Source: an uncultured Dehalococcoidaceae bacterium
Lineage (GTDB): Bacteria > Chloroflexota > Dehalococcoidia > Dehalococcoidales > RBG-16-60-22
NCBI GenBank assembly: GCA_964652725.1
Contig: CAZZAU010000001.1
Span: 1-35,109, forward strand
Reading direction: 5' to 3'
DNA length: 35,109 nucleotides
Below the pieces are notes generated by a model. That model was given only the letters and a program-made list of their open reading frames with translations, was not told where the DNA came from and ran no database searches. Position numbers and translations under genes: made by a program. Positions 4,161 to 35,109 of this stretch are shown piece after piece (positions within the stretch are counted from its first letter, which is position 1; each line of letters starts with the position of its first letter).

Positions 4161-4189
4161 TTGACAAATGTCCTGAGAGCACTTATAAT
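4161..4189 (+). promoter_or_regulatory. consensus sigma70-type promoter of the first glycan operon
   Basis: TTGACA (4161-4166), exactly 17 nt, TATAAT (4184-4189). It sits in a 220-bp gap about 64 nt upstream of the GTG start at 4253, which has AGGAGG just upstream. Confidence 0.65.
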
Positions 4190-4252
4190 AGGCCAAATCC
4201 AAGCCAGCATGCTCTCTGAGACCTTTTTATCCGTGACCAGGAGGAAAGAATA

Positions 4253-5095
4253 GTGATTCAAACCAGGGATGCCGAGCAGGCCGATGGCTATTCGCTGAGC
4301 ATCGTCATTCCGGTCAAAGACGAAGCAGACCACATCGGAGACCTGATATCGAGAATCAAGGCCAGCATGAACGGGCATCCCTATGAGATAATAGTGGTCG
4401 ATGACGGGTCGAGGGATGGAACGGAGGAGGTTCTGGCTAAATACGGGGCTCTGGTCATTTCCCATCCAGAGAATCTGGGCAAAGGCGCAGCCATGAAGTC
4501 CGGGGCGGCCAGGGCCACGGGCGATATAGTGGTCTTTATGGATGGTGATGGCGCTCACGAACCACAGGATATTGCCCGGCTCATCGAGCCTATTCTGGAA
4601 CGGAAGGCGGATTTGGTGATCGGCTCCCGGGCATTGCCGGACTCAAGGGTGGTGGTCTCTCCGGGGGGGAGGAGGCTGTGCAACGCGCTGGCCTCCTTCA
4701 TTATTTCTGCGCTAATTTCCCTTCCCCTGCTGAGCTCCGCAGCATTAAAAGGCGTGGTCCGCTATGGCAACAACAATCATAACGGACACCATTCCGCCAA
4801 TTCGAACCACAACGGCAAACGCAAATGGATAGGTATCACTGACTGCACAAGCGGCCTCCGGGCCATAAACAGGGAAAGCTGGCACAAGCTGGGGCTCGTT
4901 TCTCAGGGTTTCCAGATCGAGGCTGAAATGATATATGAAGCGGCCAGGCACCGGCTTAGCATAGCCGAGGTACCCATCAGTTGCAACTGGGACAGCCGTT
5001 TCTCCCATCTTTCCGTGGTCAGAGATGGCCTGAAGACCGCCAATCTGCTCGCCAGGAAGCTGCTGAGAACGAACGGGGCAAAGCCGGCGAGTTAG
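4253..5095 (+). CDS. GT2 glycosyltransferase, DPM1/polyprenyl-phosphate glycosyltransferase-like, with a His/Asn-rich insertion
   Basis: SIVIPVKDEADHI, YEIIVVDDGSRDGT, NLGKGAAMKSG, VVFMDGDGAHEP, DCTSGLRAI and EVPISCNW follow the DPM1-like GT2 layout. GTG start follows AGGAGG. Confidence 0.8.
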   Translation: MIQTRDAEQADGYSLSIVIPVKDEADHIGDLISRIKASMNGHPYEIIVVDDGSRDGTEEVLAKYGALVISHPENLGKGAAMKSGAARATGDIVVFMDGDGAHEPQDIARLIEPILERKADLVIGSRALPDSRVVVSPGGRRLCNALASFIISALISLPLLSSAALKGVVRYGNNNHNGHHSANSNHNGKRKWIGITDCTSGLRAINRESWHKLGLVSQGFQIEAEMIYEAARHRLSIAEVPISCNWDSRFSHLSVVRDGLKTANLLARKLLRTNGAKPAS

Positions 5096-5169
5096 TCAGG
5101 CGCGGGTGCCTTTCCTGCCCCGGATATGGTAAAGTAATTTCTGTCCGCGGTTTACGTGTTTGCTTGTCT

Positions 5170-6135
5170 ATGGAAGCTAGCAGTCATCCCAGGATTTCAG
5201 TGATTATCCCGGTCAAGAATGCGGCTCGTACTATTGAGCAGTGCCTGGAGGCCCTGTTTGACCAGTCCCTCAAACCCCAGGAGGTGATTATCGTGGATGG
5301 GCACTCCACCGACGGCACAGTGGAGCGGGCAAAGAAATATCCGGTAAAGGTCTTCTACCAGGACTACGGTGCCGCGGGCGCGGCGCGCCAGATAGGACTG
5401 GAGCACGCTGAAGGCGAATTTGTGGCCTTTACCGATGGCGATTGCATTCCCGGCCGGGATTGGTTGCGCCATCTGCACGCCGGCCTCGGTGAAGGTATCA
5501 TAGGAGTCGGAGGAAGAATAGAGAACATCGGCGATGGCCTCTGGACACGCTCCGTCAACCTGGCCTTCAGTACTTTCCTGGGCAGCGGACGGTCGGTACA
5601 GGGACGGGCGTTTGCCAGTCAGAAGTACGTCAGAAGCATCAGCGGCTGCAACAGTATGTACCGGCGGGATGACCTGCTCAAAGCGGGAGGTTTCAATCCT
5701 GACCTGTCCGGCGCTGATGAAACCGAGCTGAATGCACGTCTGCTCAAGCACGGCAGGCTACTCTACGTGCAGAAGGCGGGCATCCTCCATGACCACCGGA
5801 GAGGGCTGAGGCAATTTGCCCGGAATATGTTCAATTACGGGGGCTGGCGAAGAGAGTGCGGGGTCTGGGACCTGCCCGTTATCCCGGCGCTGGCGGCACC
5901 GTTTCTGCTCCTCACTTTCATCGCCAGCCGGTGGCTTTTTCCCGGCCTGGTCGCTGCCTATCTGGTGCTGACCGGCATGCTGGGACTCAGGTTCGCCGTA
6001 AAGGAAAGGGATGTCCGTTTCCTCTTCACCATACCGGTAGTCCTCCTGGTAGAGCACTGCTGTTATATCCTCGGTTTCTGGAAGCAGACGGTGCGTCCGC
6101 GCAGGATGACGGCGGCCAACAGGCAAGGAACATGA
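5170..6135 (+). CDS. GT2 glycosyltransferase with C-terminal membrane helices
   Basis: ISVIIPVKNAARTIEQCLEALFDQS, EVIIVDGHSTDGT, AFTDGDCIP, then ADETELNARL...RQFARNMFNYGGW and hydrophobic C-terminal helices. ATG at 5170 chosen; the ORF opens at 4981 inside the preceding gene. Confidence 0.8.
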   Translation: MEASSHPRISVIIPVKNAARTIEQCLEALFDQSLKPQEVIIVDGHSTDGTVERAKKYPVKVFYQDYGAAGAARQIGLEHAEGEFVAFTDGDCIPGRDWLRHLHAGLGEGIIGVGGRIENIGDGLWTRSVNLAFSTFLGSGRSVQGRAFASQKYVRSISGCNSMYRRDDLLKAGGFNPDLSGADETELNARLLKHGRLLYVQKAGILHDHRRGLRQFARNMFNYGGWRRECGVWDLPVIPALAAPFLLLTFIASRWLFPGLVAAYLVLTGMLGLRFAVKERDVRFLFTIPVVLLVEHCCYILGFWKQTVRPRRMTAANRQGT

Positions 6136-7586
6136 ACGTACTCCTGGTTAACCCGCCCTTCAAGGGCAGGTTCTCCCGCACTTCCAGGAGTCCGGCCATT
6201 ACTCTGGGAGGCACCATCTACTACCCTTTCTGGCTGGCCTATGCCGCCGGAGTGCTGGAGCAGAACGGGTACAATGTGCGCCTGGTGGATGCTCCTGCCG
6301 ACGGACTTTCGGTGGAAGATATTATTGCCGGGGCGGAGCCGGCGCCGCCGCGGCTCATAGTGGTGGACACCAGCACCCCCAGTCTCCTTCATGATATCGG
6401 CGTGGCCGGGCGGCTTAAAGACCGCTTTCCTCGGGCCTTTGTCTTGCTGGTGGGAACACATCCTTCGGCCTTCCCCGAACAGACGCTGGCGATGAGCGAC
6501 CGCGTGGATGCAGTGGCTGTGGGCGAGTATGACCATACCCTGCGTGACCTTGCCGGCTGCCTGGAGAGGGGTGGTGACATGGAGGCAGTGGACGGACTGG
6601 TATTGCGGCGAAACGGCCAGGTGACACGCAACCGCCCCCGCGCTCTCATTGAAGAGCTTGACGAACTCCCCTTCGCCAGCGAGGTATACCGCAAACACCT
6701 GAACATCAGGAACTATTTCTTCGCCGCGTCCGATTATCCGATGGTGATGATTATCACCGGGCGGGGCTGTCCGTACAAGTGCTTTTTCTGCGTCTATCCG
6801 CAGACCTTTCACAGTCGGCGGTACCGGCCCCGTAGCGCCGCCAACGTGGTCGACGAGTTCCAGTACATTGCCCGGAACTTGCCGGAGGTAAGGGAGGTCG
6901 GCATAGAGGATGATACCTTCACCGTTGACCAGGAACGGGTCAGGGAGATATGCCGCCTGATAATCGAGCGGGGTATCAGGCTCAAGTGGTACTGTAATGT
7001 GAGGGTCAATCTGGGGCTGGAGACGATGCGATGGATGCGCAAGGCAGGCTGCCGTCTGGTCACCGTGGGCTTTGAGAGCGCGGACCAGGCGTCCCTCAAC
7101 CGTATGCATAAAGGAATAACGGTGGAGCAGATAAAGGAATTCGTGCGCAATACCAGGAAGGCCGGCTTGCTGGTACACGGCTGCTTTATGATGGGCAATC
7201 CCGGCGAGACCAGGGAGAGTATGGAGCAGAGCCTGAAGCTGGCAAAGGAGCTCAACTGCGATACGATGCAGTTTTACCCGCTGCTGGTTTACCCTGGGAC
7301 GGAGGCCTACGCCTGGGCGAAAGAAAGGGGCTACCTTATCTCAGAGAACTATGCCGATTGGGCAGACGAAGCAGGCATGTACCGCAGTCTGCTGGATATT
7401 CCGGGCCTCCCCCACGAGGAAATTGAGGCCTTTTGCCGGCGGGCCATCCGGGAATACTATCTGCGCCCCCGGTATATGGTGATGAAGCTGGGAAGCATGG
7501 TCAGGCACCCGGATGAAATCAGGCGTGTGCTGCCGGCGACGAGGACATTTTTCCAGCGCTATTTCAGGAAACCAGGGGGCTGCTGA
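6132..7586 (+). CDS. B12-binding domain radical SAM protein (class B rSAM, methylase-like)
   Basis: N-terminal Rossmann-like region MNVLLVNPPF...VRLVDAP...IVVDTST...LVGTHPS. rSAM cluster motif GRGCPYKCFFCVYP (CxxxCxxC). ATG at 6132 overlaps the stop of the preceding GT2 (ATGA). Confidence 0.85.
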   Translation: MNVLLVNPPFKGRFSRTSRSPAITLGGTIYYPFWLAYAAGVLEQNGYNVRLVDAPADGLSVEDIIAGAEPAPPRLIVVDTSTPSLLHDIGVAGRLKDRFPRAFVLLVGTHPSAFPEQTLAMSDRVDAVAVGEYDHTLRDLAGCLERGGDMEAVDGLVLRRNGQVTRNRPRALIEELDELPFASEVYRKHLNIRNYFFAASDYPMVMIITGRGCPYKCFFCVYPQTFHSRRYRPRSAANVVDEFQYIARNLPEVREVGIEDDTFTVDQERVREICRLIIERGIRLKWYCNVRVNLGLETMRWMRKAGCRLVTVGFESADQASLNRMHKGITVEQIKEFVRNTRKAGLLVHGCFMMGNPGETRESMEQSLKLAKELNCDTMQFYPLLVYPGTEAYAWAKERGYLISENYADWADEAGMYRSLLDIPGLPHEEIEAFCRRAIREYYLRPRYMVMKLGSMVRHPDEIRRVLPATRTFFQRYFRKPGGC

Positions 7587-7635: not shown

Positions 7636-8373
7636 ATGGAACATAACTGGCAGCGGGGCGCTATCAGCAAGATAGTACGAAACATCTGGCAGAGCACCGA
7701 TGCCGAGAACAGAAGAACCGTCCTGAGCCTCTTTGAGAAAAGCAGCACGGCCAGGGTGGTGGACTTGGGATGCGAAGGAGGGAACTTCACCAGGAAACTG
7801 GGAGAGTACATCGGCAGTGGCGAGATATACGGAGTGGACAACCGGCTTGAATATGAAGCCGCCGCCCGGGATAACGGGGTGACCTTCTGCCTCTCCGACC
7901 TCAATAAGCCGCTGTCGCTCGAAAGTGAGCTGTTTGATGCGGCTCACGCCGGACAGGTCATAGAGCATTTGCCCGCCACCGACGTGTTCGTGAAGGAATG
8001 CTACCGCATACTCAAACCGGGCGGCTACATCGTTCTGACCACACCAAACCTGGCGGGATTACATAACATCATCCCCTTGCTGCTCGGAATGCAGCCGCTC
8101 AGCACCGATATAAGCAACGAGGTCTGGCTCGGCAACCGGTTCAGCCCTTACCAGGGTATGCGCCGTCCGGTGGCGGGCTATCAATATCATCTGAGGATAT
8201 TTACATATTCAGGCCTGAAGGAACTTTTCCGGTTTCACGGGTTCCGGGTGGAGAGTATGCTGGGGGCGGGCTTCTATCCCTTTCCGTCGAGTATGGCTCG
8301 GATCATGGCGCGGGTTGACCCCCGCCATGCCGCGTACCTGATTATTAAGGCACGCAAAGTATGTGCAATATGA
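7636..8373 (+). CDS. class I SAM-dependent methyltransferase
   Basis: Motif I VVDLGCEGGNF; post-I and motif II region AGQVIEHLPATD...LKPGGYIVLTTPN. First in-frame ATG after the rSAM stop; the ORF opens at 7513. Confidence 0.75.
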   Translation: MEHNWQRGAISKIVRNIWQSTDAENRRTVLSLFEKSSTARVVDLGCEGGNFTRKLGEYIGSGEIYGVDNRLEYEAAARDNGVTFCLSDLNKPLSLESELFDAAHAGQVIEHLPATDVFVKECYRILKPGGYIVLTTPNLAGLHNIIPLLLGMQPLSTDISNEVWLGNRFSPYQGMRRPVAGYQYHLRIFTYSGLKELFRFHGFRVESMLGAGFYPFPSSMARIMARVDPRHAAYLIIKARKVCAI

Positions 8374-9023
8374 AGGTGAAAAAGAGAAAACGCCGCGCCG
8401 GATACCTGTATAGCCCTGCGGAGATTTTTGACTTCTTCAAGCCACGGGGGCTGGTGCTGGATTTGGGGTGCGGTGGAGGGAGGAACACCCACTTCATGCT
8501 GGAGCAAGGGCTTGCTGTAGTGGCTATGGACAATTCTCCAAAATTGGTGTCACTGGACAACAATGCAGTCCGAAGTGATGGGACAGAGCTTCCCTTCAGA
8601 GACGAATCCTTTGATAGCGTACTATGCAACCATGTGCTGGAGCACCTACCTGATCCGGAACCGTGCATTAAAGAGGTGCACCGCGTGTTGAAAAGAGCAG
8701 GAGTGGCCTGTTTCGCTGCGCCGTGTCTCAATATTCCGCTGAAGATGCTGGTGCCCTTGTATCGCAGGCTCGCGCGTTTCGACCTTACCCGTGCACGGGA
8801 AGAGCATCTACATGTATTCAGCGTCAGACAACTTCTCTCCATGCTGGAGCCCTCTTTCCAGCTTACCGACGTCCGTTATACAGACTTCGCCACCATCATG
8901 CAGCGTCGGATGGGCATCGGTTACGGCCTAGACCACCTGCTATCGGCAGCCACCGAGAAAGTATCTCCCCTCCGCTATTTTGCCGCCAGTGTGCTTGTCA
9001 GGTGCATTAAACTTCAGGATTGA
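8361..9023 (+). CDS. class I SAM-dependent methyltransferase (Methyltransf_11-like)
   Basis: VLDLGCGGGRN, LPFRDESFDSVLCNHVLEHLPDP. The alternative start at 8370 would give an ATGA overlap with the preceding stop (8371-8373). Confidence 0.75.
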   Translation: MCNMKVKKRKRRAGYLYSPAEIFDFFKPRGLVLDLGCGGGRNTHFMLEQGLAVVAMDNSPKLVSLDNNAVRSDGTELPFRDESFDSVLCNHVLEHLPDPEPCIKEVHRVLKRAGVACFAAPCLNIPLKMLVPLYRRLARFDLTRAREEHLHVFSVRQLLSMLEPSFQLTDVRYTDFATIMQRRMGIGYGLDHLLSAATEKVSPLRYFAASVLVRCIKLQD

Positions 9024-9041
9024 CCTAGCGTTAATAATGGA

Positions 9042-10205
9042 ATGGATGGAAAAAGACGCAATATAGCGCTGGTAACCATACCCATCGCCAACCTGAAGGG
9101 CGACCCGGTGCTCCCCCTGGTGGAGATACTGAGAGAAGCCTGTGATGAGCTTCACGTTGTCACCGCCGGGCCGTACCTTGAGAAATGCCTGTCCAGCACC
9201 AGCGTGCATATCCGGAAAGTCAGTCCGGTATCACCGGGCGAGCACTGGATGAAGAAGATGATGAAATATGTGGGCGTGCAGTGGAAGACCTGTGTCAACA
9301 TCAAAAAAATCTCCGGCAGAATCGATACCGTGGTGTTTGCGGCGGGCAGCACCCTTTTCCTGCTGCCGTTGCTTTTGAGCAAGCTCCTGAGGAAGAAGGT
9401 GATATCCATAGTCGTCGCTTCCGAGCCCAGGATGGCCAGAGTGATGTACGGCAAGGCTATCGGTGGAATGGGAGGCATCCTTTTTTACTTCATCTTCAAA
9501 CTACTGGAGATGGCCAACTGCTCCCTGTCCGACCGGATAGTGGTCAGCTTCGAGACCACCGTTGACCACGTGGGCTTGAGGCGGTACGGGGACAAGGTGG
9601 TGATAGGTAACTACAACAACTACTACGTCGGGGAGCATTTCAGCATCCGCAAAAGCCTGGCGGAAAGAGCAAATACCATCGGCTATGTGGGCCGCCTGAG
9701 CCGGGAGAAAGGGGTGCTGGAGCTCGCCGAAGCCATTCCTCTCGTGGTAAGCAGGATAGAAGGAGCGCGCTTTCTCATCATCGGCGATGGCTCCCTGGCT
9801 GCCGAGATGAAGGTGGCGTTGAGAGAGGCAGGCTGCCTGGAACGAGTAGCCTTCGCCGGCTGGGTCTCGCCCGATGAGGTAGCGGCCTATCTCAACCGGA
9901 TGAAGCTCTTCGTCCTGCCATCTTATACGGAGGGGGGCAGCCGCACCTGCCTGGAAGCTATGGCCTGCGGCGCCATCGTGCTGGCGAGCGCGGTGGGCGG
10001 GTTGCTGAGCATGGTGACCGACGGCAAGACGGGGTTTTTGCTGGAGGATAACAGGCCACATACTATCGCCGCGAAGCTTGCGGAGGTCTGGGACCACCCC
10101 GGGCTGGGGGATGTTCAGAAACGGGCCAGCTCCTATGTGAAAAAGAACTTCTCTTATTCGAAGGCGGTGGCCAGGTGGGAAGAGATATTGAGCGGCATAT
10201 CATAG
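9042..10205 (+). CDS. GT4-family (GT-B) glycosyltransferase
   Basis: YVGRLSREKGV, LIIGDGSL, VLPSYTEGGSRTCLEAMACGAIVLASAVGGL...DGKTGFLLE (E-x7-E type GT4 C-terminal domain). Confidence 0.85.
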   Translation: MDGKRRNIALVTIPIANLKGDPVLPLVEILREACDELHVVTAGPYLEKCLSSTSVHIRKVSPVSPGEHWMKKMMKYVGVQWKTCVNIKKISGRIDTVVFAAGSTLFLLPLLLSKLLRKKVISIVVASEPRMARVMYGKAIGGMGGILFYFIFKLLEMANCSLSDRIVVSFETTVDHVGLRRYGDKVVIGNYNNYYVGEHFSIRKSLAERANTIGYVGRLSREKGVLELAEAIPLVVSRIEGARFLIIGDGSLAAEMKVALREAGCLERVAFAGWVSPDEVAAYLNRMKLFVLPSYTEGGSRTCLEAMACGAIVLASAVGGLLSMVTDGKTGFLLEDNRPHTIAAKLAEVWDHPGLGDVQKRASSYVKKNFSYSKAVARWEEILSGIS

Positions 10206-10215
10206 CCTGAAAGAG

Positions 10216-10812
10216 ATGCATATGGCAAAACATACCGACTATAATCTGTGGCTGCTGGAAGAGAAGAAGAAGTATCTGGAGCTTTTCCCGGAAGACGTTT
10301 CCACCGTGCTGGATGTGGGCTGCGGGAGGGGTGAGCTGCTGCATATCCTCAAAGGTCGTGGCTACGAGCGCGTGGAAGGGTGCGACGTGGACGAGAGGTG
10401 CCTGGAAAAAAGCGCGCGGTTCGCTCCGGTAAGCAGGGTAGATATCCTGGAACTGTCAAAGCGTTTTCCGCCGGGTAGTTTTGATCTGACAGTATGCCTC
10501 CATATTCTTGAGCATGTGCCGCATCCGTATCTGGCCTTGCAGGAATTGAAGGCGGTAAGCAGCAAATACATATTGCTCGCGGTGCCCAATGCCCGTTGCA
10601 TTGCCTATGATGAGAGTCCGGCCCATCTTTACAGCTGGAATGGAGACACCTTGCGGAACCTTATTGAAGCTGCCGGACTAAAAGTGATAAAACTGAAGCA
10701 GGACAGGACAAATCTGTTTCCCAATGTCCTGAGATTCGCTCCGGTGATAAACAGGGTGCTGCTCAAATTATTCGTGGGGCCGAATGAGCTGGTAGTATTG
10801 TGCACCAAGTAA
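10216..10812 (+). CDS. class I SAM-dependent methyltransferase
   Basis: VLDVGCGRGELL, FDLTVCLHILEHVPHP. Confidence 0.75.
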   Translation: MHMAKHTDYNLWLLEEKKKYLELFPEDVSTVLDVGCGRGELLHILKGRGYERVEGCDVDERCLEKSARFAPVSRVDILELSKRFPPGSFDLTVCLHILEHVPHPYLALQELKAVSSKYILLAVPNARCIAYDESPAHLYSWNGDTLRNLIEAAGLKVIKLKQDRTNLFPNVLRFAPVINRVLLKLFVGPNELVVLCTK

Positions 10813-10836
10813 CGCCAGATATTGTATGGAATTAAG

Positions 10837-23144: not shown

Positions 23145-23165
23145 TAAGCAAACCGGTATGCGACG

Positions 23166-27577: not shown

Positions 27578-28654
27578 ATGGCAGGGAATGTTGAACTACT
27601 CCGCGATGAAAGCGAGTGGGAGCGGTTTGTTGCCGCTTCTCCGCAGGCTACTTTTTACCACACCCTGAAGTGGAAAAAGGCCCTGGAAGAGGCTTTCTCT
27701 CTGAAGACGGTATACCTCGTGGTGCGGGGCAACTCGGGGGAGGTGGTGGGGGTTTGTCCTCTTGCCCTGACCCGGAAGCTGGGAATATTCCGCGTCCTGG
27801 ACTCGCTTCCCGAGTCCGACTTCGCCGGTCCGCTGGTTGCGGCGGGATATGAAGAAGAAGCGCTGCACGCCCTGAATGATTACCTGCTCGCCGCCGGCCC
27901 CGGGATGGGCATCACTTATGCCAAACTCAGGTGCCCCCGCCGGGAGATAGCCCGGCATTTCCAGGCTGCGGGCAAAACGCTCGACCTGTCCTCCGGCTCG
28001 ATGAACCTGGACCTCCGCGAAAAGCCCGTGGAATACATCTGGAACAACGTGTTCAGTCAAAAAAGCGGGCAGAGGACCTACATCCGCCGCTTTGAGAAGG
28101 ACGGGTTTCAGAACGTGGAGGCGCGGAGCGCCGAAGACCTGGACACTTTCTACGAGCTGTACCGGCGCAATATGCGCCACATCGGCGGCGTCCCGCACCC
28201 GCACTCATTTTTCCGCCGGTTATGGAAGGAGCTTCATCCGGACTACTTCAACATCCTGCTTACGGTAGGCAATGGCAGGTGCATCGGCGGGGAAGCGTTT
28301 TTCATCTACCCGCCGCGCAAAACTGCATACCAGACGTTCATCGGCCTGGACCGGAACGTGGAAACACAGTACCGCACCTATTTCTACCTTAGCTGGGGGC
28401 TGATAACGTGGTGCGCCAGGAACGGCTTTGAGGTGGTGAGTTTCGGGGGCACCCCGGCAGACCCCGCAACATCAAATCACGCCCAGAAGAGCCGGTTCGG
28501 GGCCAGTTTTAACCAGGACTATGTGGTCTGCCTGCCATTCGACCGCGCCCTCTTCCTGACCCGGCAGGCCGCCCTGAAGCTGGGCCGCGCGGCGCAGAAG
28601 CGGCTGCCAGCCTTCTTGAGGAGCAAAATGCAGCGGGCTGGTTTTGGCATATGA
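27578..28654 (+). CDS. FemAB/CelD-like GNAT-fold acyl- or aminoacyl-transferase
   Basis: WERFVAASPQATFYHTLKWKKALEEAF N-terminus, and later FYELYRRNMRHIGGVPHPHSFF...IGGEAFFIY. This resembles FemAB-related proteins in EPS loci. The call is from memory only. Confidence 0.5.
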   Translation: MAGNVELLRDESEWERFVAASPQATFYHTLKWKKALEEAFSLKTVYLVVRGNSGEVVGVCPLALTRKLGIFRVLDSLPESDFAGPLVAAGYEEEALHALNDYLLAAGPGMGITYAKLRCPRREIARHFQAAGKTLDLSSGSMNLDLREKPVEYIWNNVFSQKSGQRTYIRRFEKDGFQNVEARSAEDLDTFYELYRRNMRHIGGVPHPHSFFRRLWKELHPDYFNILLTVGNGRCIGGEAFFIYPPRKTAYQTFIGLDRNVETQYRTYFYLSWGLITWCARNGFEVVSFGGTPADPATSNHAQKSRFGASFNQDYVVCLPFDRALFLTRQAALKLGRAAQKRLPAFLRSKMQRAGFGI

Positions 28655-29625
28655 TGTGCTGGAGGCGATGGCTGGACCTTTTGCGTGACCCCCGGATGCC
28701 CCAATATGCGTTCTATCACAAGATAGGGCGTAGGGGAGGTAAACGGGGCACAGTTGCCCTGCCAGAGGGCCTGACCATACTCGTGGTGCTTACGTTTGAC
28801 ATAGAATACGACTTCGGCTCGGCGGGCGGGGAGGCGGCTGTGCAAGCCGTGGGGCCTTTTCTCAAGCACGCGGGGCCATGGGGGAAGGAGATGGGAGCCG
28901 CGCTCACGTTGTTCGTCCAGGGGGACCTTGTCGCCGGCCTTGCCGGCTATCTACGGGAGCTGGAAAAGGAAAACGAAATCGGGCTGCACGGTTACTCCCA
29001 TGAGCTGTGGGGTGGAGCAAAATGGTTCCTGCCGCATAAACCCCTGCCGCTAGAAACCAAACGCGGGCTGCTGGAGCGCAGCCTGGAGCAGTTCTCCACC
29101 CACCACCTGGCCCGCCCCGTTTCCTTCCGGGCCCCGGACCTGGTGACCGACCGGGAAACTCTGGAACTGCTGGAAAGCTATGGCTTCACCGTTGACTCCT
29201 CGGCTCCGTCCTACTATGGAGTGGCGCCCGAATTATCCCGACCGCTGGGCCCGGGCAGCAAATTGCTGGAGATACCCGTAACTGCCCGTCCTTATTCCCG
29301 CACGCAATTTAGATGTTTTCTCCCGTTCACCTCCTATGAGGTGTTCAATATGTTCCAGGTAACCGCAGGAGACGACCGGCATTTTACGGACTACGTGGAT
29401 GATGTGCTAACTTTTCAGGTGAAAGCGGGGGTTATGCCGCACCTGGTCTTTCTGGCCCATCCCTGGGAGTTCCAGGAATGGCCGGCCAGGAGAAGACTGG
29501 ACTACTGCGCACAGGCCAACTACGAGCTTTTGCGCCGCAGGTTCTCCCTGCTCAGGGAGAGATACCGGTTGAGCTATGTTACTCTGAGCGAGATGGCCCG
29601 TTATGTTGGCGGGGGAACGGGATGA
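28651..29625 (+). CDS. polysaccharide deacetylase-like (CE4-like) protein
   Basis: CE4-like motif series LTFDIEYD, GLHGYSHE, SFRAPDL. Start overlaps the previous stop (ATGA at 28651-28654). Confidence 0.55.
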   Translation: MMCWRRWLDLLRDPRMPQYAFYHKIGRRGGKRGTVALPEGLTILVVLTFDIEYDFGSAGGEAAVQAVGPFLKHAGPWGKEMGAALTLFVQGDLVAGLAGYLRELEKENEIGLHGYSHELWGGAKWFLPHKPLPLETKRGLLERSLEQFSTHHLARPVSFRAPDLVTDRETLELLESYGFTVDSSAPSYYGVAPELSRPLGPGSKLLEIPVTARPYSRTQFRCFLPFTSYEVFNMFQVTAGDDRHFTDYVDDVLTFQVKAGVMPHLVFLAHPWEFQEWPARRRLDYCAQANYELLRRRFSLLRERYRLSYVTLSEMARYVGGGTG

Positions 29626-30776
29626 ACGCACACCCCGGCTATGACGTGCTGGACTCGCTGCCTGTCGCGACCCTGCGAAAAGCCATAGGCGGGTTGCTGG
29701 GGCACGAGGAGCGGGCGGAGATTGAGCGGCGTCTGACCGGGCAGGGAATAGGGCAGGGCAAGCGTTTCACCTTCTTCAACTACGGCAGGAATGCCCTGTA
29801 TACCCTGCTCAGGGAGAGGTGCGCCGGCAGCGAAGTCATCTTTCCCGGCTTCATCTGCCCGTCGCTTGCCTTGGCCGCGCTAAGGGCGGACGCCAGGCCT
29901 TGGTTTGTCGATGTCAGTCTGGACGATTTCAACCTCGACGCAAGCCTGTTGTCGCCGGAGCTGCTGGAAAGGGCGGGCGCTTTGCTGGTTAATCATACCT
30001 TCGGTGTTCCGGCAGACGTGGACAGGATACGGAGCCGTCCGGGGGGGGAAAGAGTCTATCTGGTCGAAGATATCGCCCAGGCCCTTTTCTCCCGGTGTGA
30101 CGGCTCGCCCGCAGGCGCCCGCGGTGACGCCGTGCTGGTGAGCATGTACAAGCAGGTGCCCAATATTCACGGGGCGGTGATTATCTCGGAGCCGGGGCTG
30201 GAAAACAGAGGCACGGATTGCGGCGGGCCGGGCAGACTGTTGCTGCTGACCAGGGGGCCGCACCAGTCTCTTTTGCGCTATGTGCGCCGCAGGCGAGCAC
30301 TTCCCGCGCAGGGTGGGGAAAAAAGCAGGCCGGCACCGGCGCGCCCATCCCGTCTGGCGCAGGCCATCTTCGCCGCCTCCCTGCCCGACCTGGAAGCTGT
30401 GGTCGAAGGGCGGCGGGCTATACTCCGCCACTACCAGGACAGGGCGCGGGCAAGCGAATACCTGGTGCCGCAACAGATAAGAGAGGGCAAAGAACCGTCC
30501 TGTTTCAACTTCAGCGTACGGTTGCTCCCGGAACTCGCTCATGTCAGGGATGAAGCCGTGCTGGCGTTGCGGAGAAAAGGCATCTTCTGCGACCGCCTGT
30601 GGCACGATTCCCCGGTAGCGCTCGGCGTTTTCAGGGACTATCTTGCTGGGGATTGCCCTAACTCGAGGCTGCTGGCGCGCTCGGTGATAAATCTCCCCGT
30701 AAAGGCGAGCTACGACGAGCATGATGTGGGTTATCTCTTCGATTCCGTGGAAGAGGCTGTGCGCAGGCTGGTCTGA
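29622..30776 (+). CDS. DegT/DnrJ/EryC1-like PLP-dependent aminotransferase
   Basis: FNYGRNALYTLL, VIFPGFICPS, LLVNHTFGVPADVD, VYLVEDIAQA, and VSMYKQVPNIHGAVII with a candidate PLP lysine. ATG at 29622 overlaps the previous stop (ATGA). The ORF opens at 29478. Confidence 0.6.
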   Translation: MNAHPGYDVLDSLPVATLRKAIGGLLGHEERAEIERRLTGQGIGQGKRFTFFNYGRNALYTLLRERCAGSEVIFPGFICPSLALAALRADARPWFVDVSLDDFNLDASLLSPELLERAGALLVNHTFGVPADVDRIRSRPGGERVYLVEDIAQALFSRCDGSPAGARGDAVLVSMYKQVPNIHGAVIISEPGLENRGTDCGGPGRLLLLTRGPHQSLLRYVRRRRALPAQGGEKSRPAPARPSRLAQAIFAASLPDLEAVVEGRRAILRHYQDRARASEYLVPQQIREGKEPSCFNFSVRLLPELAHVRDEAVLALRRKGIFCDRLWHDSPVALGVFRDYLAGDCPNSRLLARSVINLPVKASYDEHDVGYLFDSVEEAVRRLV

Positions 30777-31555
30777 TGGACGGCAGGGCCAATGTTGACA
30801 AGTGGCAGCGCTACTGGAGCGCCAGCCGGCCTTCGGTAACGTTACAGGCATACCACCGCCAGGTGGCAGAGAGAATCGTGGGTAGGTTGGGCCGCCTGTT
30901 CCCGCCCGCTGCGGAAGAGACAGAACACCCCCTCAGACTTCTGGATGCGGGCTGCGGGCAGGGTAACCTGACCGTCATGCTGGCCGGAAAGACGGGGTAT
31001 GAGACAGCTGCGCTAGACATCATCGCGGAGCCGCTGCGGCACTGTCATCAGCTGGCCGGGGAGCGGCAGATTGACCGCGTCAGTGTTGTCAGGGCCAGCG
31101 TTTTCCGGATGCCCTTCCGGGACGGTACCTTTGACATTGCTGTCAGCACTGGCAGCGAGAGCGCGGCGGCCTACCCGGGAGCAGCAGAGGAAGTGATAAG
31201 GGTGGTGAAGAAAGGCGGCACCCTGTTCATCGATTTCACGGCTATGCCCAATCTCTACCAGCCGGTGCGCTCGTTGAAAGACCTTTTCCGGTACCTGCAG
31301 GCAAGGCGAACCGTGGCCCGGGGCGGAAAGACGAAACGCTTCCATTATGGTAAACTTGGACTCAAGGAACGATTTGAACGGCGGCTCGGCCTGAGAATCA
31401 GGCAGACGTGGTATATGAATACGGCTCCGCCCTGGGGAGGGGTGAGGGCTCGCTTGCTCTTCGAGAAGAGCGCGGGCAGGTGGCTGGGGCCTCTTCTTGC
31501 CAGAACGGTGCTGGTGGAGATGGAGAACAGCAAGAAGGATGAATGCGGTTATTAG
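30776..31555 (+). CDS. class I SAM-dependent methyltransferase
   Basis: LLDAGCGQGNLTVML, MPFRDGTFDIAVS, VKKGGTLFIDF. The ATG shares a base with the previous TGA (TGATG at 30774-30778). Confidence 0.7.
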   Translation: MDGRANVDKWQRYWSASRPSVTLQAYHRQVAERIVGRLGRLFPPAAEETEHPLRLLDAGCGQGNLTVMLAGKTGYETAALDIIAEPLRHCHQLAGERQIDRVSVVRASVFRMPFRDGTFDIAVSTGSESAAAYPGAAEEVIRVVKKGGTLFIDFTAMPNLYQPVRSLKDLFRYLQARRTVARGGKTKRFHYGKLGLKERFERRLGLRIRQTWYMNTAPPWGGVRARLLFEKSAGRWLGPLLARTVLVEMENSKKDECGY

Positions 31556-31594: not shown

Positions 31595-32758
31595 ATGAGA
31601 ATACTGATGCAGCAGGGGGCCTATTTTCCGTGGGTCGGCGGCGCCGAGATATTCATGCAGAAACTCGCCGAGCATATGGTGGCCGGAGGGCATCACGTCG
31701 ATGTGGTGACGGGGCTGTGGAGCAAGCCGGATATCTATACGGAAAACTGGAACAAGGAGTTCGAGGTCATCAACGGCGTCAATGTCTACCGCGTGCCGAC
31801 GGCCGCCCGGAAGTATGCCGGCGCCCTGTCCTGCATATGGCAAACGGTGTTGAAGAGCAAACAGCTTGACCGCGCCAGCAGTTATGACGTTATTCACAGT
31901 CACATATCTCCGGCGCTGATCTGCGGCGCCGCCAGCAAGGGAAAGAACAGGTTAATGATTACCCTTCAGGGGGGTGACTTCGGGGAGTACAAAGAGTCGA
32001 AGATGGCATTGAGAGTCATGGAGGCCCCGTTCATCGTCTGGGCATTGCGCCGGGCAGACCTGGTGCACGCCGTCAGCACCCATATCGCCAGGCAGGCGGG
32101 GAGATACGGCGCAAGGAAAATAAGAATCGTGCCTAACGGCGTTGACGCCCGCCTGTTCCGCCCCAACGAGAAGAACAAAGCCAGGCAGAAGCTGGGGTAC
32201 AGGGTTGACCAGAGGATCGTGATAAGCTCGTCCAGACTGACGCCGAAGAACGGCCTCGAATATCTGGTCAGGGCCGTGGCCAGGATTCCGAATCTGAGCT
32301 TGCTCATCATCGGCGATGGCGAGCAAAGGAGCTATCTGGAGGCACTTATAGCCGAATTGAACCTCCGGGGGAGGGTCGAGCTGCTGGGCTATCTGGAACA
32401 CACGCGGCTGCCCGACTACCTGAACATGGCCGATGTCTTTTGCCGTCCATCAATCGACGAAGGGTTCGGCATCGCGTTCATCGAGGCTATGGCCTGCCGG
32501 ATACCTACCATAGGCACTGCCGTAGGCGGCATCACCGATATCATAGAAGACGGCAGGAACGGTCTGCTGGTGGCTCCGGGAAGCTCCGACGATGTGTTGC
32601 GTGCCTTGAAGAAGGTGCTGCATGACAAGGAGCTGGCACGGCGGATAGCAGGAGAGGGATATCTCACCGTCCAGAAGAAGTTCACCTGGCCGGCGGTACT
32701 CGAGCGGATGGACAGCTTATATGGAGAGTTGGTGCAGCAACCGGGAGGGAGGAAATGA
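31595..32758 (+). CDS. GT4-family glycosyltransferase
   Basis: MRILMQQGAYFPWVGGAE. LIIGDGEQRS, CRPSIDEGFGIAFIEAMACRIPTIGTAVGGITDIIEDGRNGLLV. GGAGAG lies 7 nt upstream of the ATG at 31595; the ORF opens with GTG at 31580. Confidence 0.85.
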   Translation: MRILMQQGAYFPWVGGAEIFMQKLAEHMVAGGHHVDVVTGLWSKPDIYTENWNKEFEVINGVNVYRVPTAARKYAGALSCIWQTVLKSKQLDRASSYDVIHSHISPALICGAASKGKNRLMITLQGGDFGEYKESKMALRVMEAPFIVWALRRADLVHAVSTHIARQAGRYGARKIRIVPNGVDARLFRPNEKNKARQKLGYRVDQRIVISSSRLTPKNGLEYLVRAVARIPNLSLLIIGDGEQRSYLEALIAELNLRGRVELLGYLEHTRLPDYLNMADVFCRPSIDEGFGIAFIEAMACRIPTIGTAVGGITDIIEDGRNGLLVAPGSSDDVLRALKKVLHDKELARRIAGEGYLTVQKKFTWPAVLERMDSLYGELVQQPGGRK

Positions 32759-32801
32759 TTATACAGGGCTGGATTGAAGCCCGTATGATTGCGAGAGTTC
32801 A

Positions 32802-33962
32802 ATGAAGATTCTCATCACCACCCCCATCTTCCCTCCGGAAATCGGGGGACCGGCGACGTATACGCTGGAGGTGTCTCGGAGGTTGAAAGCCTGCGGGCAT
32901 ACGGTGCGCATTGTCACCTTCGCTGATGCCGCTCCGGACGTGCCGGACCTGGACGTCGCTGCGATAAGAAACAGGACTGTTGTGCCGGGCAGCGTCAGCA
33001 GGCAAAGCAGGCTATTTGCCGCGCTCCTGCGTGCCTCCAGGGGCATGGACCTGGTCTACGCACAGGGGCCGGTGGTGGTGGGCCTTGGCTCCATCGCCGC
33101 CGGGAAGCTGACCGGAAAGCCGGTGGTAGTCAAGTTCGTGGGGGATGTGGCCTGGGAGGGGGCAACGAGCAGAGGAGAGACGGTGAAGTCTCTGGACGAC
33201 TTTCTGCGGCAGCCGGAAGGAGGCTGGCAGACAGCATTGACCAGACGAATAGAGAGCTTTGTCCTGCGGCATGCGGACAGAATAATCACCCCCTCCCTCT
33301 ATCTCAAGCACGTCCTGGCCAAATTCTACGGAATACCTGACAGCGGCATCGAGGTTGTTTACAATGCGGTGGCGCCGGACGCATTTGCCCCGGTGGCGGA
33401 CAGTAACGCCGGCTACGGGAGGCCGCTGCTGACCACGGTGGGCAGGCTCGTTCCCTGGAAAGGGGTCGATGAGCTTATAGAAATGGTGCCTGTGCTGGTG
33501 AAGAAATATCCCCGGGTGAAGCTGCAGGTGATAGGGGAAGGACCCGAAGAGAGCAGACTCAAACACCTCTGCCGGAAGCTGGGGGTGGAAACCCACGTCG
33601 TCTTCGCCGGAAAGCTGGAGCATAAGGAGACCATAGCGCGTGTCAGTAGTTCAGACCTTTTCATTCTGAACTCGCGCTATGAAGGCCTCCCCCACGTTGT
33701 GCTTGAGGCCATGGCCTGCGGTTGCCCGGTGGTAGCCACGGACATCGCGGGCACCAGAGAGGCGCTGGGAGACGGCAGCTACAGCGCTGCCTTCACTCCG
33801 GGAAACCGGGAGGAGATGGAGGAGAAGATTACCCGGCTGCTGGAGGACTGCAAAGCAAGAAAAGAGATGGCCGAGCAGGCCTACCGGAATGTCATCTCCC
33901 GTTTCACCTGGGAAAAGACGCTCGACCGGCTGGAGAGTGTTCTGGGCTCGGTCTTGAGTTGA
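32802..33962 (+). CDS. GT4-family glycosyltransferase
   Basis: MKILITTPIFPPEIGGPATY. VIGEGPEESRL, ILNSRYEGLPHVVLEAMACGCPVVATDIAGTREAL. Confidence 0.85.
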   Translation: MKILITTPIFPPEIGGPATYTLEVSRRLKACGHTVRIVTFADAAPDVPDLDVAAIRNRTVVPGSVSRQSRLFAALLRASRGMDLVYAQGPVVVGLGSIAAGKLTGKPVVVKFVGDVAWEGATSRGETVKSLDDFLRQPEGGWQTALTRRIESFVLRHADRIITPSLYLKHVLAKFYGIPDSGIEVVYNAVAPDAFAPVADSNAGYGRPLLTTVGRLVPWKGVDELIEMVPVLVKKYPRVKLQVIGEGPEESRLKHLCRKLGVETHVVFAGKLEHKETIARVSSSDLFILNSRYEGLPHVVLEAMACGCPVVATDIAGTREALGDGSYSAAFTPGNREEMEEKITRLLEDCKARKEMAEQAYRNVISRFTWEKTLDRLESVLGSVLS

Positions 33963-33979
33963 GAAGTTAAGATTAAGAA

Positions 33980-35109
33980 ATGCGCGTTTTGATGCTCAGC
34001 TACGACAAAGCGCTCGTCGCCGACAATAGTATAGGCGATGCCCTGCAAAGGCACCGGCATTACGCCGCCTGCCTGGACCGCCTAGACGTGGTAGTACCCT
34101 GCCCGGGCGGGAAAAAGCGCTCCGCCATCGAGCTGGACGGCAGGCTGGCCATCCACCCCAGCCACGGCCCCAAACCGCTTGCGTGGCTGCGGGCCTATCA
34201 AAAAGCCCGGACGGTCTGCCGGGCCGGCGGCATGGACCTGGTCATTACCCAGGACGCTCTGCTGGGCTGCCTGGGCGTGATGCTGAAACGGGAGTTCGGG
34301 ACCGGGCTTATCGTTAACGCCTTTGCCCTGGACATTTTCAGTCGCGTCTGGCTGGAGGAAAAGCTGCTGCACCGGCTGTACGCGGTTCTGATGCGCCAGG
34401 CATTGCGGCGCGCGGACCTGGTCCGTACCGATGGCACCGGTGACCGGAAAAGCCTCATTGAGGAGCTGGGGTTGCCTGCTGATAAGGTGATAACACTGCC
34501 GATGGTGCCCAGCCCGGAGAATATCACACGGTTCACCCGGGCCGACGGCACGGCGGTGCGGGGGGAGTTGCTGAACGGCAGGTATGACAGTCTGGTGCTT
34601 TTCGTGGGGATGCTGATCAGGCAAAAGAACCTGCCGAATCTGCTGGCGGCAGCCCGCCTGGTGCTTGCTGACCATTCCCGGACCCTGTTCGTCATTATCG
34701 GGGATGGGCCCGAGCGGGGACATCTGGAAATGCTGGCCCGGGAGCTGGGCATAGAAGACAATGTGCGTTTTGCGGGCTTGATGTCCTATGACCTGCTGCC
34801 CGCATATTATGCCGCCTGCGATTTGTTCGTCCTGCCTTCCTGGTACGAAGGCTTCGCCCGGGTGCTGATGGAGGCGGCGTTCGCCCGGAAACCGATAGTT
34901 GCCACGGACGTGAGCGGCGTTTCCGACCTTATTGAGGACGGGCGCAGCGGGTACATCGTGGCGGTGAACAGCCCGGAACAGCTTGCCGCAAAGATAGGGC
35001 GGCTGCTGGATGACCCCGCAACGGCCCGGCGGATGGGAATGAGTGGATATGAGCGAGCAATGGAATACTGCGATTTCGATAACAATATCGAGAAGCTGGT
35101 CGCGGTCTG
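33980..35109 (+). CDS. GT4-family glycosyltransferase, 3'-truncated by the window edge
   Basis: Not in the supplied ORF track because it has no stop in the window. My manual translation from the ATG at 33980 is open to 35109: MRVLMLSYDKALV...FVGMLIRQKNL...VIIGDGPERGHL...FVLPSWYEGFARVLMEAAFARKPIVATDVSGVSDLIEDGRSGYIV. Confidence 0.8.
   Translation, partial: MRVLMLSYDKALVADNSIGDALQRHRHYAACLDRLDVVVPCPGGKKRSAIELDGRLAIHPSHGPKPLAWLRAYQKARTVCRAGGMDLVITQDALLGCLGVMLKREFGTGLIVNAFALDIFSRVWLEEKLLHRLYAVLMRQALRRADLVRTDGTGDRKSLIEELGLPADKVITLPMVPSPENITRFTRADGTAVRGELLNGRYDSLVLFVGMLIRQKNLPNLLAAARLVLADHSRTLFVIIGDGPERGHLEMLARELGIEDNVRFAGLMSYDLLPAYYAACDLFVLPSWYEGFARVLMEAAFARKPIVATDVSGVSDLIEDGRSGYIVAVNSPEQLAAKIGRLLDDPATARRMGMSGYERAMEYCDFDNNIEKLVAV

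Follow-up and report, generated by a model that had tools for sequence, protein, structure and literature searches.

In this study, we analyzed a stretch of 35,109 nucleotides from an uncultured Dehalococcoidaceae bacterium (contig CAZZAU010000001.1; the whole stretch is called the window), in which a glycan island extends from position 4253 to the contig end at 35109. According to an open reading frame (ORF) map and Pfam scans of every ORF, the island comprises 29 genes, all of them glycan-related (29/29). We give an even chance to the reading that it encodes an archaeal-style, lipid-phosphate-linked surface-glycoconjugate pathway of a Dehalococcoidia-like bacterium, decorating probably an S-layer-type protein; for a protein as the acceptor of the glycan, taken separately, our confidence stays just short of even. 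By analogy, the route most likely lies closer to archaeal and actinobacterial pathways than to proteobacterial O-antigen or capsule synthesis. Two polytopic proteins, named POLY1 and POLY2 here, two glycosyltransferases of family 2 (GT2) and a DUF1616 protein are central to this reading:

4253..5095, plus strand: GT2, polyprenyl-phosphate-sugar-synthase-like (DPMS/AglJ/PpgS/ArnC/GtrB type; PF00535 5.3e-32)
14435..16294, minus strand: POLY1, very probable GT-C membrane glycosyltransferase of 619 aa from a large unnamed family (at least 12 transmembrane (TM) helices; hhalign to the POLY2 family)
19741..21204, plus strand: POLY2, very probable GT-C glycosyltransferase of 487 aa from a conserved Chloroflexota family (Foldseek on the AF2 model)
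21276..22190, plus strand: GT2, polyprenyl-phosphate-sugar-synthase-like, with C-terminal TM segments (PF00535 4.6e-24)
22209..23051, minus strand: DUF1616 membrane protein with 4–5 TM helices and an extracytoplasmic domain (PF07760 1.9e-57)

We assign POLY1 and POLY2 to the GT-C enzymes with very high confidence. Neither has a sequence match in Pfam, NCBIfam or PDB, single-family profiles searched against PDB included. POLY2 has over 811 homologues (54–61% identity), which form a tight family, and its AlphaFold (AF2) model, built from 35 homologues (pLDDT 65, pTM 0.66), was compared with PDB using Foldseek. The first 32 entries were all GT-C structures, including STT3, AftA, AglB, PglB, DPY19, ALG12, AftD, ArnT and Pmt4 (E down to 1.3e-7, TM-scores 0.45–0.61), with STT3 8pn9 as the best match (E 1.3e-7, TMq 0.57). 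Invariant in this family are H37, D39, W41 and H43 as well as DPWK at 408–411 in the C-terminal domain. For POLY1, a word-index search yielded nine matches and an exhaustive profile search 1,966 representative relatives (812 with E below 1e-30; length close to 620 aa in nearly every case); the family has the motif GxDPWxH and the invariant residues R96, D154, Y177, H291, G398 and R441. An earlier hhalign comparison with a 9-sequence POLY1 alignment was uninformative (5% probability), and significance was reached only after the family had been enlarged: with 53 POLY1 sequences, the alignment to the POLY2 family covered 310 columns at a probability of 96.9% (E 1.5e-10). Pairwise BLASTP of the two proteins gave an E-value of 6e-6, and Pfam PMT_2 was matched by seven of the 53 POLY1-family members (E as low as 2.5e-7). 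For the POLY1 model, which is of low confidence (pLDDT 55), the top 14 Foldseek matches were PglB, AglB, STT3 and AftA (E 4.5e-3 to 7e-2). An earlier note on this DNA, made by a model from the sequence alone, had described two related GT-C-like polytopic proteins, and the Foldseek matches of POLY2, the hhalign probability and the PMT_2 matches bear this out.

In GT-C enzymes, the first outward loop, right behind a TM helix, bears the catalytic acid. D39/E40 of POLY2 and D154 of POLY1, with the Asp-bearing motifs HIDEWVH and GxDPWxH, respectively, are invariant or nearly so and directly follow a predicted TM helix, presumably in outward orientation. Both proteins are free of the WWD/WWDYG motif and of Pfam matches to STT3 or AglB_core. 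Judged from their sequences, they are homologous to each other, represent families without a Pfam model, and are not members of the STT3 family. With at least 1,966 representatives for POLY1 and at least 811 for POLY2, these are sizeable families deserving a Pfam model and biochemical study. One relative, P0146 (1,122 aa), is a fusion protein with the POLY1-family domain at 494–1115 behind an unassigned N-terminal half of about 490 aa.

The GT2 encoded at 21276, directly downstream of POLY2, matched the NCBIfam model AglJ over its full length (1.3e-40; 140 bits vs. a cutoff of 325), further PpgS (NF058614; 6e-33), the haloarchaeal dolichyl-phosphate hexose transferase (1.4e-22) and ArnC (5e-14). 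In PDB, it matched Pyrococcus DPMS (3.9e-14) and, over the whole protein including the C-terminal membrane segment, ArnC (7.6e-10). The GT2 encoded at 4253 matched AglJ (6e-34) and PpgS (2e-27), both below cutoff, and in PDB DPMS (5mlz, 3.1e-18) as well as ArnC and GtrB. Copies of both DPMS-like GT2s with 53–55% identity are present in loci of POLY1 relatives (L081, L083; that of the GT2 at 4253 in L083 with 55%), and the GT2 at 21276 is 55% identical to the GT2 following AglB in L132, a locus of a POLY2 relative. We place both enzymes in the polyprenyl-phosphate-sugar-synthase class with good confidence; individual sugars are not assigned, all scores being below the equivalog cutoffs. Two GT-C proteins together with two DPMS-like synthases indicate that sugars are transferred on the outer side of the membrane, with lipid monophosphates as donors, and the context of DPMS/ArnC-like GT2s in the same loci suggests that POLY1 and POLY2 use polyprenyl-phosphate-linked sugars as donors.

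The POLY2 loci analyzed were 80 metagenome loci, one contig of a Chloroflexota metagenome-assembled genome (MAG), and another metagenome contig. In L115 and L132, the gene order DUF1616 (divergent), POLY2, AglB, AglJ-like GT2 and GT4 equals the arrangement in the window with AglB inserted, while in L086 and L136 AglB is located directly upstream of POLY2. The AglB genes (L132 4568-6952; L115 2759-5146; L086 7209-9977; L136 7628-9904; L173 10001-12367) encode proteins with STT3 and AglB_core domains and the WWDYG motif. Several of the 1,382 AglB homologues found are named 'oligosaccharyl transferase, archaeosortase A system-associated' at NCBI and come from Dehalococcoidales/Chloroflexota. With 70.5% identity to a POLY2 labelled as Dehalococcoidales, the AglB-linked POLY2 proteins are closer to it than the window POLY2 is to any of them. 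The position of AglB between POLY2 and the AglJ-like GT2 in relatives points to glycosylation of a protein, probably of the S-layer type. In this respect the earlier suggestion of envelope or S-layer protein glycosylation is strengthened; that the island works as one pathway is less well founded, as it probably consists of two or three modules. In the literature searched, no paper linked AglB, STT3 or oligosaccharyltransferase with Chloroflexota or Dehalococcoidia.

DUF1616 adjoins POLY2 homologues in 26 of 35 loci with flanks of at least 1.5 kb and in eight of ten with flanks of at least 6 kb, often as a TM-only form of 110–120 aa, and by this sequence evidence POLY2 and DUF1616 are a conserved gene pair. 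In the literature searched, the only mention of DUF1616 was that of an N-glycosylated Haloferax membrane protein (PMC8241124). No POLY1 gene was found in the POLY2 loci (0/81), and those with Pfam annotation contained no Wzy_C, Wzz, Poly_export, Bac_transf or Glycos_transf_4.

Several further observations were made in these loci. On the 2.3-Mb contig L173, AglB is followed by a GT4 and then by a Wzm/Wzt-like ABC transporter. In a subset of Chloroflexota-type AglB proteins of about 860–950 aa (P0304, P0305, P0310, P0313, P0316 and others), DnaJ (PF00226) is fused to the oligosaccharyltransferase (OST) domains. In position +1 or +2 downstream of POLY2, L135 (3290-5734) and about 14–16 other loci encode a large protein that combines two XRE-type helix-turn-helix domains at the N-terminus with a TM helix and an extracellular, repetitive region containing CARDB/Ig-like domains. 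The C-terminal end ('...VEP', a TM helix and 'RRRRA') resembles a sorting signal of the exosortase/archaeosortase type, and the protein is a candidate for a surface protein or an acceptor. At position -2, upstream of POLY2, L146 (792-2006) and 12–13 other loci encode an FAD-dependent, geranylgeranyl reductase-like protein with a weak match to GGR_cat and matches to Lycopene_cycl and DAO, which might point to a connection with polyprenol carrier saturation.

The relatives of POLY1 stand in a different surrounding. Four syntenic loci (L081-L084), two of them NCBI Chloroflexota MAG contigs, share the GT4-GT4-methyltransferase arm with the window. On the other side of POLY1, they contain a GT4-like gene, a Wzx of 496 aa (PF01943) two genes upstream of the POLY1 homologue, and further methyltransferases, in place of which the window has a GT2 with tetratricopeptide repeats (TPR), a methyltransferase and a dehydrogenase. 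Three distant loci of the family (L168, L171, L172) are rich in GT4 genes, with methyltransferases in two of the three, B12-radical-SAM genes in one, and Wzx in L171. None of the seven POLY1-family loci (10–22 kb each) contained a phosphoglycosyl transferase (PGT), Wzy, Wzz or Wza, and neither POLY2 nor DUF1616 was present in the POLY1 loci examined. The comparison of synteny proposed in the earlier note thus revealed Wzx beside POLY1 and AglB near POLY2, with the PGT/Wzy/Wzz/Wza set missing from all seven POLY1 loci. In L171, a CDP-alcohol phosphatidyltransferase (11881-13155) is encoded directly beside the POLY1-family gene, and the cluster also includes two asparagine synthase-like genes, two B12-radical-SAM genes and Wzx; the glycan made there may have a phospho-alcohol or lipid link.

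The island contains seven GT4, four GT2 and five class I methyltransferase genes, one B12-radical-SAM gene, and sugar-nucleotide and tailoring genes. Pfam matches of window ORFs were accepted at E ≤ 0.01 and NCBIfam scores were compared with the equivalog cutoffs. E-values were 1e-23 to 1e-45 for the GT4s (PF00534), 1e-24 to 1e-32 for the GT2s (PF00535), and 1e-12 to 1e-48 for nearly all inventory genes, with a weaker value of 5.7e-06 for the polysaccharide deacetylase. These scans reproduced the seven GT4s, four GT2s and other genes that had been called from the ORFs in the earlier note. The membrane-embedded proteins in a hydropathy scan were POLY1, POLY2, DUF1616 and two GT2s with C-terminal TM segments. 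The genes are organized in five transcription blocks with two divergent intergenic regions, and the largest intergenic gap is 220 bp; therefore, there is no hidden gene in the island. As already noted from the sequence, the cluster runs off the right edge: the window is the complete contig, which terminates within the GT4 gene 33980, so that the cluster is incomplete on this side. In addition to the five features given above, the island encodes:

5170..6135, plus strand: GT2 with about three C-terminal TM helices (PF00535 3.5e-28; TM prediction)
6132..7586, plus strand: B12-binding radical S-adenosylmethionine (SAM) enzyme, HpnJ-like (PF02310 and PF04055; HpnJ 3e-120)
7636..8373, plus strand: class I SAM methyltransferase (PF13489 and PF08241, about 1e-15)
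8361..9023, plus strand: class I SAM methyltransferase, first unit of a tandem methyltransferase-GT4 pair (PF08241 1.7e-23)
9042..10205, plus strand: GT4, paralogue of the GT4 at 10837 (PF00534 3.6e-35)
10216..10812, plus strand: class I SAM methyltransferase (PF13489 1.4e-17; syntenic with a methyltransferase of 195 aa in L081 and L082)
10837..12012, plus strand: GT4 (PF00534 4e-36; syntenic with a GT4 of 385 aa in L081-L083)
12009..13367, plus strand: adenylate-forming enzyme, CapK/PaaK/F390-synthetase-like (NCBIfam below cutoff; weak PF00501)
13375..14481, plus strand: GT4, convergent with POLY1 (PF00534 5.3e-43; syntenic with a GT4 of 369 aa beside POLY1 homologues)
16329..17330, minus strand: GT2 with C-terminal TPR, EpsE/TuaG-like (PF00535 7.4e-31, weak TPR; EpsE 4e-46, below cutoff)
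17335..18192, minus strand: class I SAM methyltransferase (PF13489 1.1e-21)
18303..19574, minus strand: nucleotide-sugar 6-dehydrogenase, TviB/WbpA-like (PF03721, PF00984, PF03720)
23166..24110, plus strand: short-chain dehydrogenase/reductase (SDR), nucleoside diphosphate (NDP)-sugar epimerase/dehydratase (PF01370 5.9e-48; GalE-like 6e-41, below cutoff)
24111..24818, plus strand: sugar-1-phosphate nucleotidyltransferase, HddC/ManC-like (PF00483 5e-21)
24815..25795, plus strand: GHMP kinase, HddA-like (heptose-7-phosphate kinase; PF00288, PF08544)
25812..26387, plus strand: SIS isomerase, GmhA-like (PF13580 1e-19)
26428..27555, plus strand: GT4 (PF00534 8.5e-23, PF13439 4e-15)
27578..28654, plus strand: FemAB-family acyl/aminoacyl transferase-like protein (PF13480 4.4e-12)
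28651..29625, plus strand: polysaccharide deacetylase-like protein of carbohydrate esterase family 4 (CE4; PF01522 5.7e-06)
29622..30776, plus strand: DegT/DnrJ/EryC1-family pyridoxal phosphate enzyme, divergent (PF01041 1.2e-25; weak NCBIfam matches)
30776..31555, plus strand: class I SAM methyltransferase (PF08241 1.9e-15)
31595..32758, plus strand: GT4 (PF00534 3.7e-45)
32802..33962, plus strand: GT4 (PF00534 2.6e-43)
33980..35109, plus strand: GT4, truncated by the contig end (PF00534 4.1e-41)

Among the sugar-nucleotide genes, three adjacent ones resemble those for activation of heptose. The route to GDP-D-glycero-D-manno-heptose proceeds via GmhA, HddA, GmhB and HddC. The HddC-like protein (24111) matched HddC (7.9e-34) and mannose-1-phosphate guanylyltransferase (8e-36), the HddA-like protein (24815) matched HddA over its full length (5e-40), and the GmhA-like protein (25812) matched TIGR00441 gmhA (1.5e-31), all below the NCBIfam cutoffs. 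Neither Pfam nor tblastn with the GmhB of a relative revealed GmhB or a HAD phosphatase in the window. In the POLY2 loci L085 and L086, the heptose genes recur beside POLY2, and there a HAD phosphatase gene adjoins the SIS gene. Hence, the earlier identification of hddC, hddA and gmhA is retained as three likely genes, with GmhB absent from the window. The dehydrogenase (18303) exceeded the cutoff of TIGR03026 (363 bits) and stayed below that of TviB (334 bits); in sequence it is closest to the TviB-type UDP-GlcNAc 6-dehydrogenases. For the CapK/PaaK-like protein (12009), the best matches were a DVU_1553-family AMP ligase (2.4e-42) and PaaK (1e-30), and for the FemAB-like protein (27578) TIGR03019 (FemAB, PEP-CTERM-associated; 6e-24), likewise below cutoff. 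CE4 genes recur in POLY1 loci.

Six methylases had been counted in the earlier note, including the radical SAM enzyme. The five class I methyltransferases stand, while the radical SAM protein (6132-7586) is nearest to HpnJ (3e-120; 402 bits vs. a cutoff of 577.6), which we take not to be a methylase. BchE (165 bits) and the methylases, among them PhpK (139 bits) and HpnR (101 bits), scored lower, and by these scores its closest curated relative is not a methylase and its chemistry is left unassigned. Possibly, the enzyme acts on a sugar by rearrangement and not by methylation. Its start codon overlaps the stop codon of the membrane-anchored GT2 5170-6135 (ATGA). Similar radical SAM genes were found in the POLY1 loci L083 and, in two copies, L171.

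None of the window ORFs matched PF02397, PF00953, PF01943, PF04932, PF02706, PF02563, PF01061 or PF00005 at E ≤ 0.01, so that no PGT, Wzx, Wzy/Wzz, Wza or ABC exporter was detected in the window, and a flippase of the GtrA family (PF04138) was not matched either. When Wzx, AglB and GmhB of a relative were used as tblastn queries, the window gave no match at E ≤ 1. The absence of canonical initiation, flipping, polymerization and export genes from the window, as stated in the earlier note, is thereby confirmed. From the Wzx/Wzy set (PGT, Wzx, Wzy, polysaccharide co-polymerase (PCP)/Wzz), the window has no member and the relatives L081-L084 and L171 have Wzx alone. The ABC-dependent pair (Wzm ABC2_membrane, Wzt ABC_tran) is absent from the window as well, and among the loci examined ABC2/ABC_tran genes occurred only beside AglB in the distant locus L173. 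Three factors partly explain the apparent lack of 'canonical' genes: a checklist centred on bacteria, truncation of the contig, and genuine lipid-phosphate/GT-C chemistry of two sizeable uncharacterized families. The flippase is probably missing here due to contig truncation or cluster variation. If the archaeal type is allowed, the AglJ-like GT2 may be a candidate for initiation, and a polymerase is unnecessary for an oligosaccharide destined for protein. Thus, the non-canonical route proposed earlier holds as far as GT-C proteins with DPMS/ArnC/AglJ-like GT2s are concerned, which indicate transfer of sugars from lipid-phosphate donors outside the membrane; the lack of a flippase is probably not a property of the pathway, in view of Wzx in relatives. 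More generally, truncation and a bacterial-centric checklist together can make a flippase or initiator seem 'missing' from a MAG contig.

For the archaeal-style pathway, we infer the carrier, the donors, the acceptor, the order of steps and any role of DUF1616 from the sequences. Activated sugars would be supplied in the cytoplasm: probably UDP-N-acetylhexosaminuronic acid by the dehydrogenase and the SDR, GDP-heptose via GmhA, HddA, HddC and a GmhB encoded outside the window, and sugars carrying amino or acyl groups via the DegT, CE4, FemAB-like and CapK-like proteins. Seven GT4s and the soluble GT2 would then assemble an oligosaccharide on a polyprenyl-phosphate carrier, initiated either in the Haloferax manner by an AglJ-like GT2 or by a PGT from outside the island. 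O-methylation of the glycan would be due to the five SAM methyltransferases, and modification of a sugar to the HpnJ-like radical SAM enzyme. A Wzx-type flippase, encoded in-cluster in relatives and off-contig here, would turn the lipid-linked glycan outward. The DPMS-like GT2s would synthesize polyprenyl-phosphate-monosaccharides, from which POLY1 and POLY2 (POLY2 probably with DUF1616) would pass the sugars to the glycan or acceptor at the outer face. The acceptor would most likely be a surface protein of the S-layer type, because the POLY2 module is syntenic with AglB loci, Dehalococcoides mccartyi has an S-layer, and genes for peptidoglycan synthesis are absent from terrestrial Chloroflexi strains (PMC4959059). 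For en-bloc transfer to the acceptor, an AglB-type OST with its gene elsewhere would be responsible, or perhaps one of the GT-C proteins.

Several points weigh against this pathway. The window encodes no acceptor protein, AglB, flippase or PGT, and glycan assembly, flipping and final transfer are modelled on relatives with 43–61% identity. AglB adjoins POLY2 in just four of 81 loci (two of ten with long flanks), and AglB, POLY2 and DUF1616 are all missing from the POLY1 loci examined, so that POLY1 may be involved in another glycan. The scores of the GT2s are far from reaching the equivalog cutoff of AglJ (140 vs. 325 bits), the Foldseek result for POLY1 gives a weak indication from a poor model (pLDDT 55) with weak E-values, and the best NCBIfam matches of the FemAB, CE4 and GT4 proteins, far below cutoff, are PEP-CTERM/exopolysaccharide (EPS)-associated families, which would suit an exopolysaccharide too.

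Such a product, i.e. a conventional Wzx/Wzy- or ABC-dependent exopolysaccharide, capsule or wall polysaccharide, appears rather unlikely to us. In this case, the missing genes would be off-contig, consistent with the contig end within a GT4 gene, the in-cluster Wzx of relatives and the ABC2 transporter adjoining the glycan cluster in L173, and the role of the GT-C/GT2 pairs would be limited to attaching side-branch sugars beyond the membrane, similar to Gtr/Arn-type decoration, while eleven GTs would fit a complex repeat unit. However, Wzy_C, Wzz, Poly_export, Bac_transf and Glycos_transf_4 are present in 0/7 POLY1 loci and in no Pfam-annotated POLY2 locus, the POLY2 module is syntenic with AglB loci, and the EPS-associated matches of FemAB, GT4 and CE4 lie 3–5 fold below the NCBIfam cutoffs. 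A membrane-anchored glycolipid or lipoglycan similar to the mycobacterial phosphatidylinositol mannosides, lipomannan and lipoarabinomannan, started by GT4s on a membrane lipid and extended by the GT-C proteins after flipping, would explain why neither the window nor the seven related loci have a PGT, and the combination of GT-C with a Ppm1/PpgS-like GT2 follows mycobacterial logic (PpgS matches). The GT4s moderately match glycolipid synthases (MGlcDAG synthase, GlcNAc-PG synthase), but no better than many other GT4 families, and the CDP-alcohol phosphatidyltransferase adjoining the POLY1 homologue in L171 occurs in this one locus only. The HpnJ family, to which the radical SAM protein is similar, acts on hopanoid glycolipids; on the other hand, no acyltransferase or lipid-synthesis gene is present in the window, and the AglB synteny of the POLY2 module favours protein. 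We consider a lipoglycan quite improbable.

Nearly even chances are given to the possibility that two or three independent adjacent loci with different products are involved, namely a protein-glycosylation module with POLY2, DUF1616 and the heptose genes, and a variable module with POLY1 and methyltransferases. POLY1 is absent from all 81 POLY2 loci and neither POLY2 nor DUF1616 occurs in POLY1 loci, there are five transcription blocks with two divergent intergenic regions, and the POLY2 family is tight (54–61% identity) while close POLY1 relatives are rare. The tight packing without a non-glycan gene between the modules and the uniform base composition speak against separate loci. This possibility is compatible with the archaeal-style pathway and not opposed to it; the island is probably a fusion of the conserved POLY2/DUF1616/heptose module with the variable, methyltransferase-rich POLY1 module.

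The island was also compared with characterized systems. Three-component extracytoplasmic glycosylation is known from GtrA/GtrB/GtrC, ArnC/ArnT and CsbB/GtcA/YfhO. Like these, the island has polyprenyl-phosphate-sugar-synthase-like GT2s beside GT-C proteins, and the GT2 at 21276 aligns over its full length with ArnC and that at 4253 with GtrB. Unlike these, it has no GtrA (PF04138) and DUF1616 as conserved third gene instead, and its GT-C proteins belong to unnamed families. The mycobacterial systems Ppm1-PMT and PpgS-Rv3779 resemble the island in the pairing of a PpgS-like GT2 (6e-33) with GT-C proteins, in PMT_2 matches of some POLY1-family members and in a monoderm-type envelope chemistry; differences are scores below the equivalog cutoff, another taxon, and the location within a large island of GT4 and methyltransferase genes. 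The slg clusters of Geobacillus/Aneurinibacillus comprise a PGT (WsaP), a Wzm/Wzt ABC exporter and a Wzy_C-type O-oligosaccharyltransferase. The island shares with them the trio of likely heptose-activation genes, presumable glycan methylation and a likely S-layer protein target, whereas PGT, Wzm/Wzt, Wzy_C and GmhB are absent from the window.

An S-layer glycoprotein is also known from Kuenenia stuttgartiensis, whose O-glycan is heavily methylated (PMC5088730), thus offering a precedent for extensively methylated glycans on a bacterial S-layer protein. This organism belongs to another phylum, and a term search in PMC5088730 gave no biosynthetic gene cluster; the right-edge GT4 of the window is 35% identical to a Brocadiaceae gene. 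In the Agl system of Haloferax volcanii, which also includes AglG, AglI and AglE, AglJ initiates on dolichyl phosphate and AglB transfers the glycan, the final mannose is supplied on a dolichyl-phosphate carrier of its own and added by AglD, AglR and AglS, and AglM, AglF and AglP are responsible for uronic acid formation, nucleotide activation and methylation (PMC3871713). Similarly, the island encodes a DPM1-type GT2 that may start a glycan on polyprenyl or dolichyl monophosphate, a polytopic enzyme that would transfer a second lipid-phosphate-monosaccharide outside the cell, and an NDP-sugar dehydrogenase, a nucleotidyltransferase and SAM methyltransferases in one cluster, with a Wzx-like flippase and AglB at matching positions in its relatives. 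It differs in the bacterial host, in a window without AglB and AglR/Wzx, in GT2s far below the AglJ cutoff, in POLY1 and POLY2 matching no NCBIfam or Pfam family, and in the larger numbers of GTs (11) and methyltransferases (5), the heptose genes and DUF1616. Overall, the island would operate in the manner of the archaeal Agl and the bacterial three-component (Gtr, Arn, PMT, PpgS) systems but is not a demonstrable member of any characterized family: POLY1 and POLY2 fall outside STT3, the Wzx/Wzy and ABC sets are absent from the window, and the Gtr triad, the Agl set and the heptose pathway are without GtrA, AglB/AglR and GmhB, respectively.

The envelope of Dehalococcoidia-type Chloroflexota is poorly understood, and the island with its relatives represents a testable parts list for surface glycosylation, comprising lipid-phosphate-sugar synthases, two large unnamed GT-C families, a DUF1616 partner and, in relatives, AglB of the archaeosortase-A type. 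Transfer of an archaellum from Archaea to Dehalococcoidia and Anaerolineae has been described (PMC12488501); with this precedent, the island adds to the evidence for archaeal cell-surface machinery acquired by Chloroflexota. A more far-reaching idea, which we regard as unlikely, is that POLY1, or POLY2 with DUF1616, are new glycan-to-protein transferases in wall-less, S-layer-bearing Chloroflexota, acting beside AglB or replacing it, in which case DUF1616 would be an obligatory subunit or a lipid-sugar flippase. If true, this would provide the first function for DUF1616, a domain described mainly from archaea, and a new class of bacterial oligosaccharyl- or glycosyltransferase.

The window proteins were singletons in the protein collection searched. 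For the right-edge GT4, a scan of the GTDB representative genomes gave nothing above 35% identity, this best match being a gene of a Brocadiaceae MAG. Named homologues of POLY1 and POLY2 come from 'Chloroflexota bacterium' or 'Dehalococcoidales bacterium' MAGs, and the bacterial factor GreA is encoded in POLY2-related loci; the label 'Methanosarcinales' of one 3.5-kb contig is probably a binning error. In view of these homologues and of GreA, an archaeal origin of the window, to which DUF1616 and the AglJ-like GT2 might have pointed, was rejected. An anammox origin, as the Brocadiaceae match might suggest, was rejected too, given the identity of only 35% and distinctive genes that all point to Chloroflexota.

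Within the island, a tandem duplication was found at 8361-12012, the unit consisting of a small methyltransferase gene and a GT4 gene. The two GT4s (9042, 10837) are 38% identical, and each has the C-terminal GT4 Pfam domain only and a hydrophobic segment near residue 100. The DegT gene probably starts with the ATG at 29622, overlapping the CE4 stop codon, and not at the ORF start at 29478. An ORF of 837 aa on the minus strand (22209-24722) was rejected, since only its last 281 codons (DUF1616) are real and the rest is an antisense artefact over the SDR and HddC genes. To the left of the island, a tRNA-Ser(CGA) is located at 96-184 on the minus strand, and the border is formed by an operon on the plus strand (403-4032) encoding DUF58, DUF4129 (9 TM helices) and MoxR AAA+ ATPase proteins, which is unrelated to glycan synthesis.

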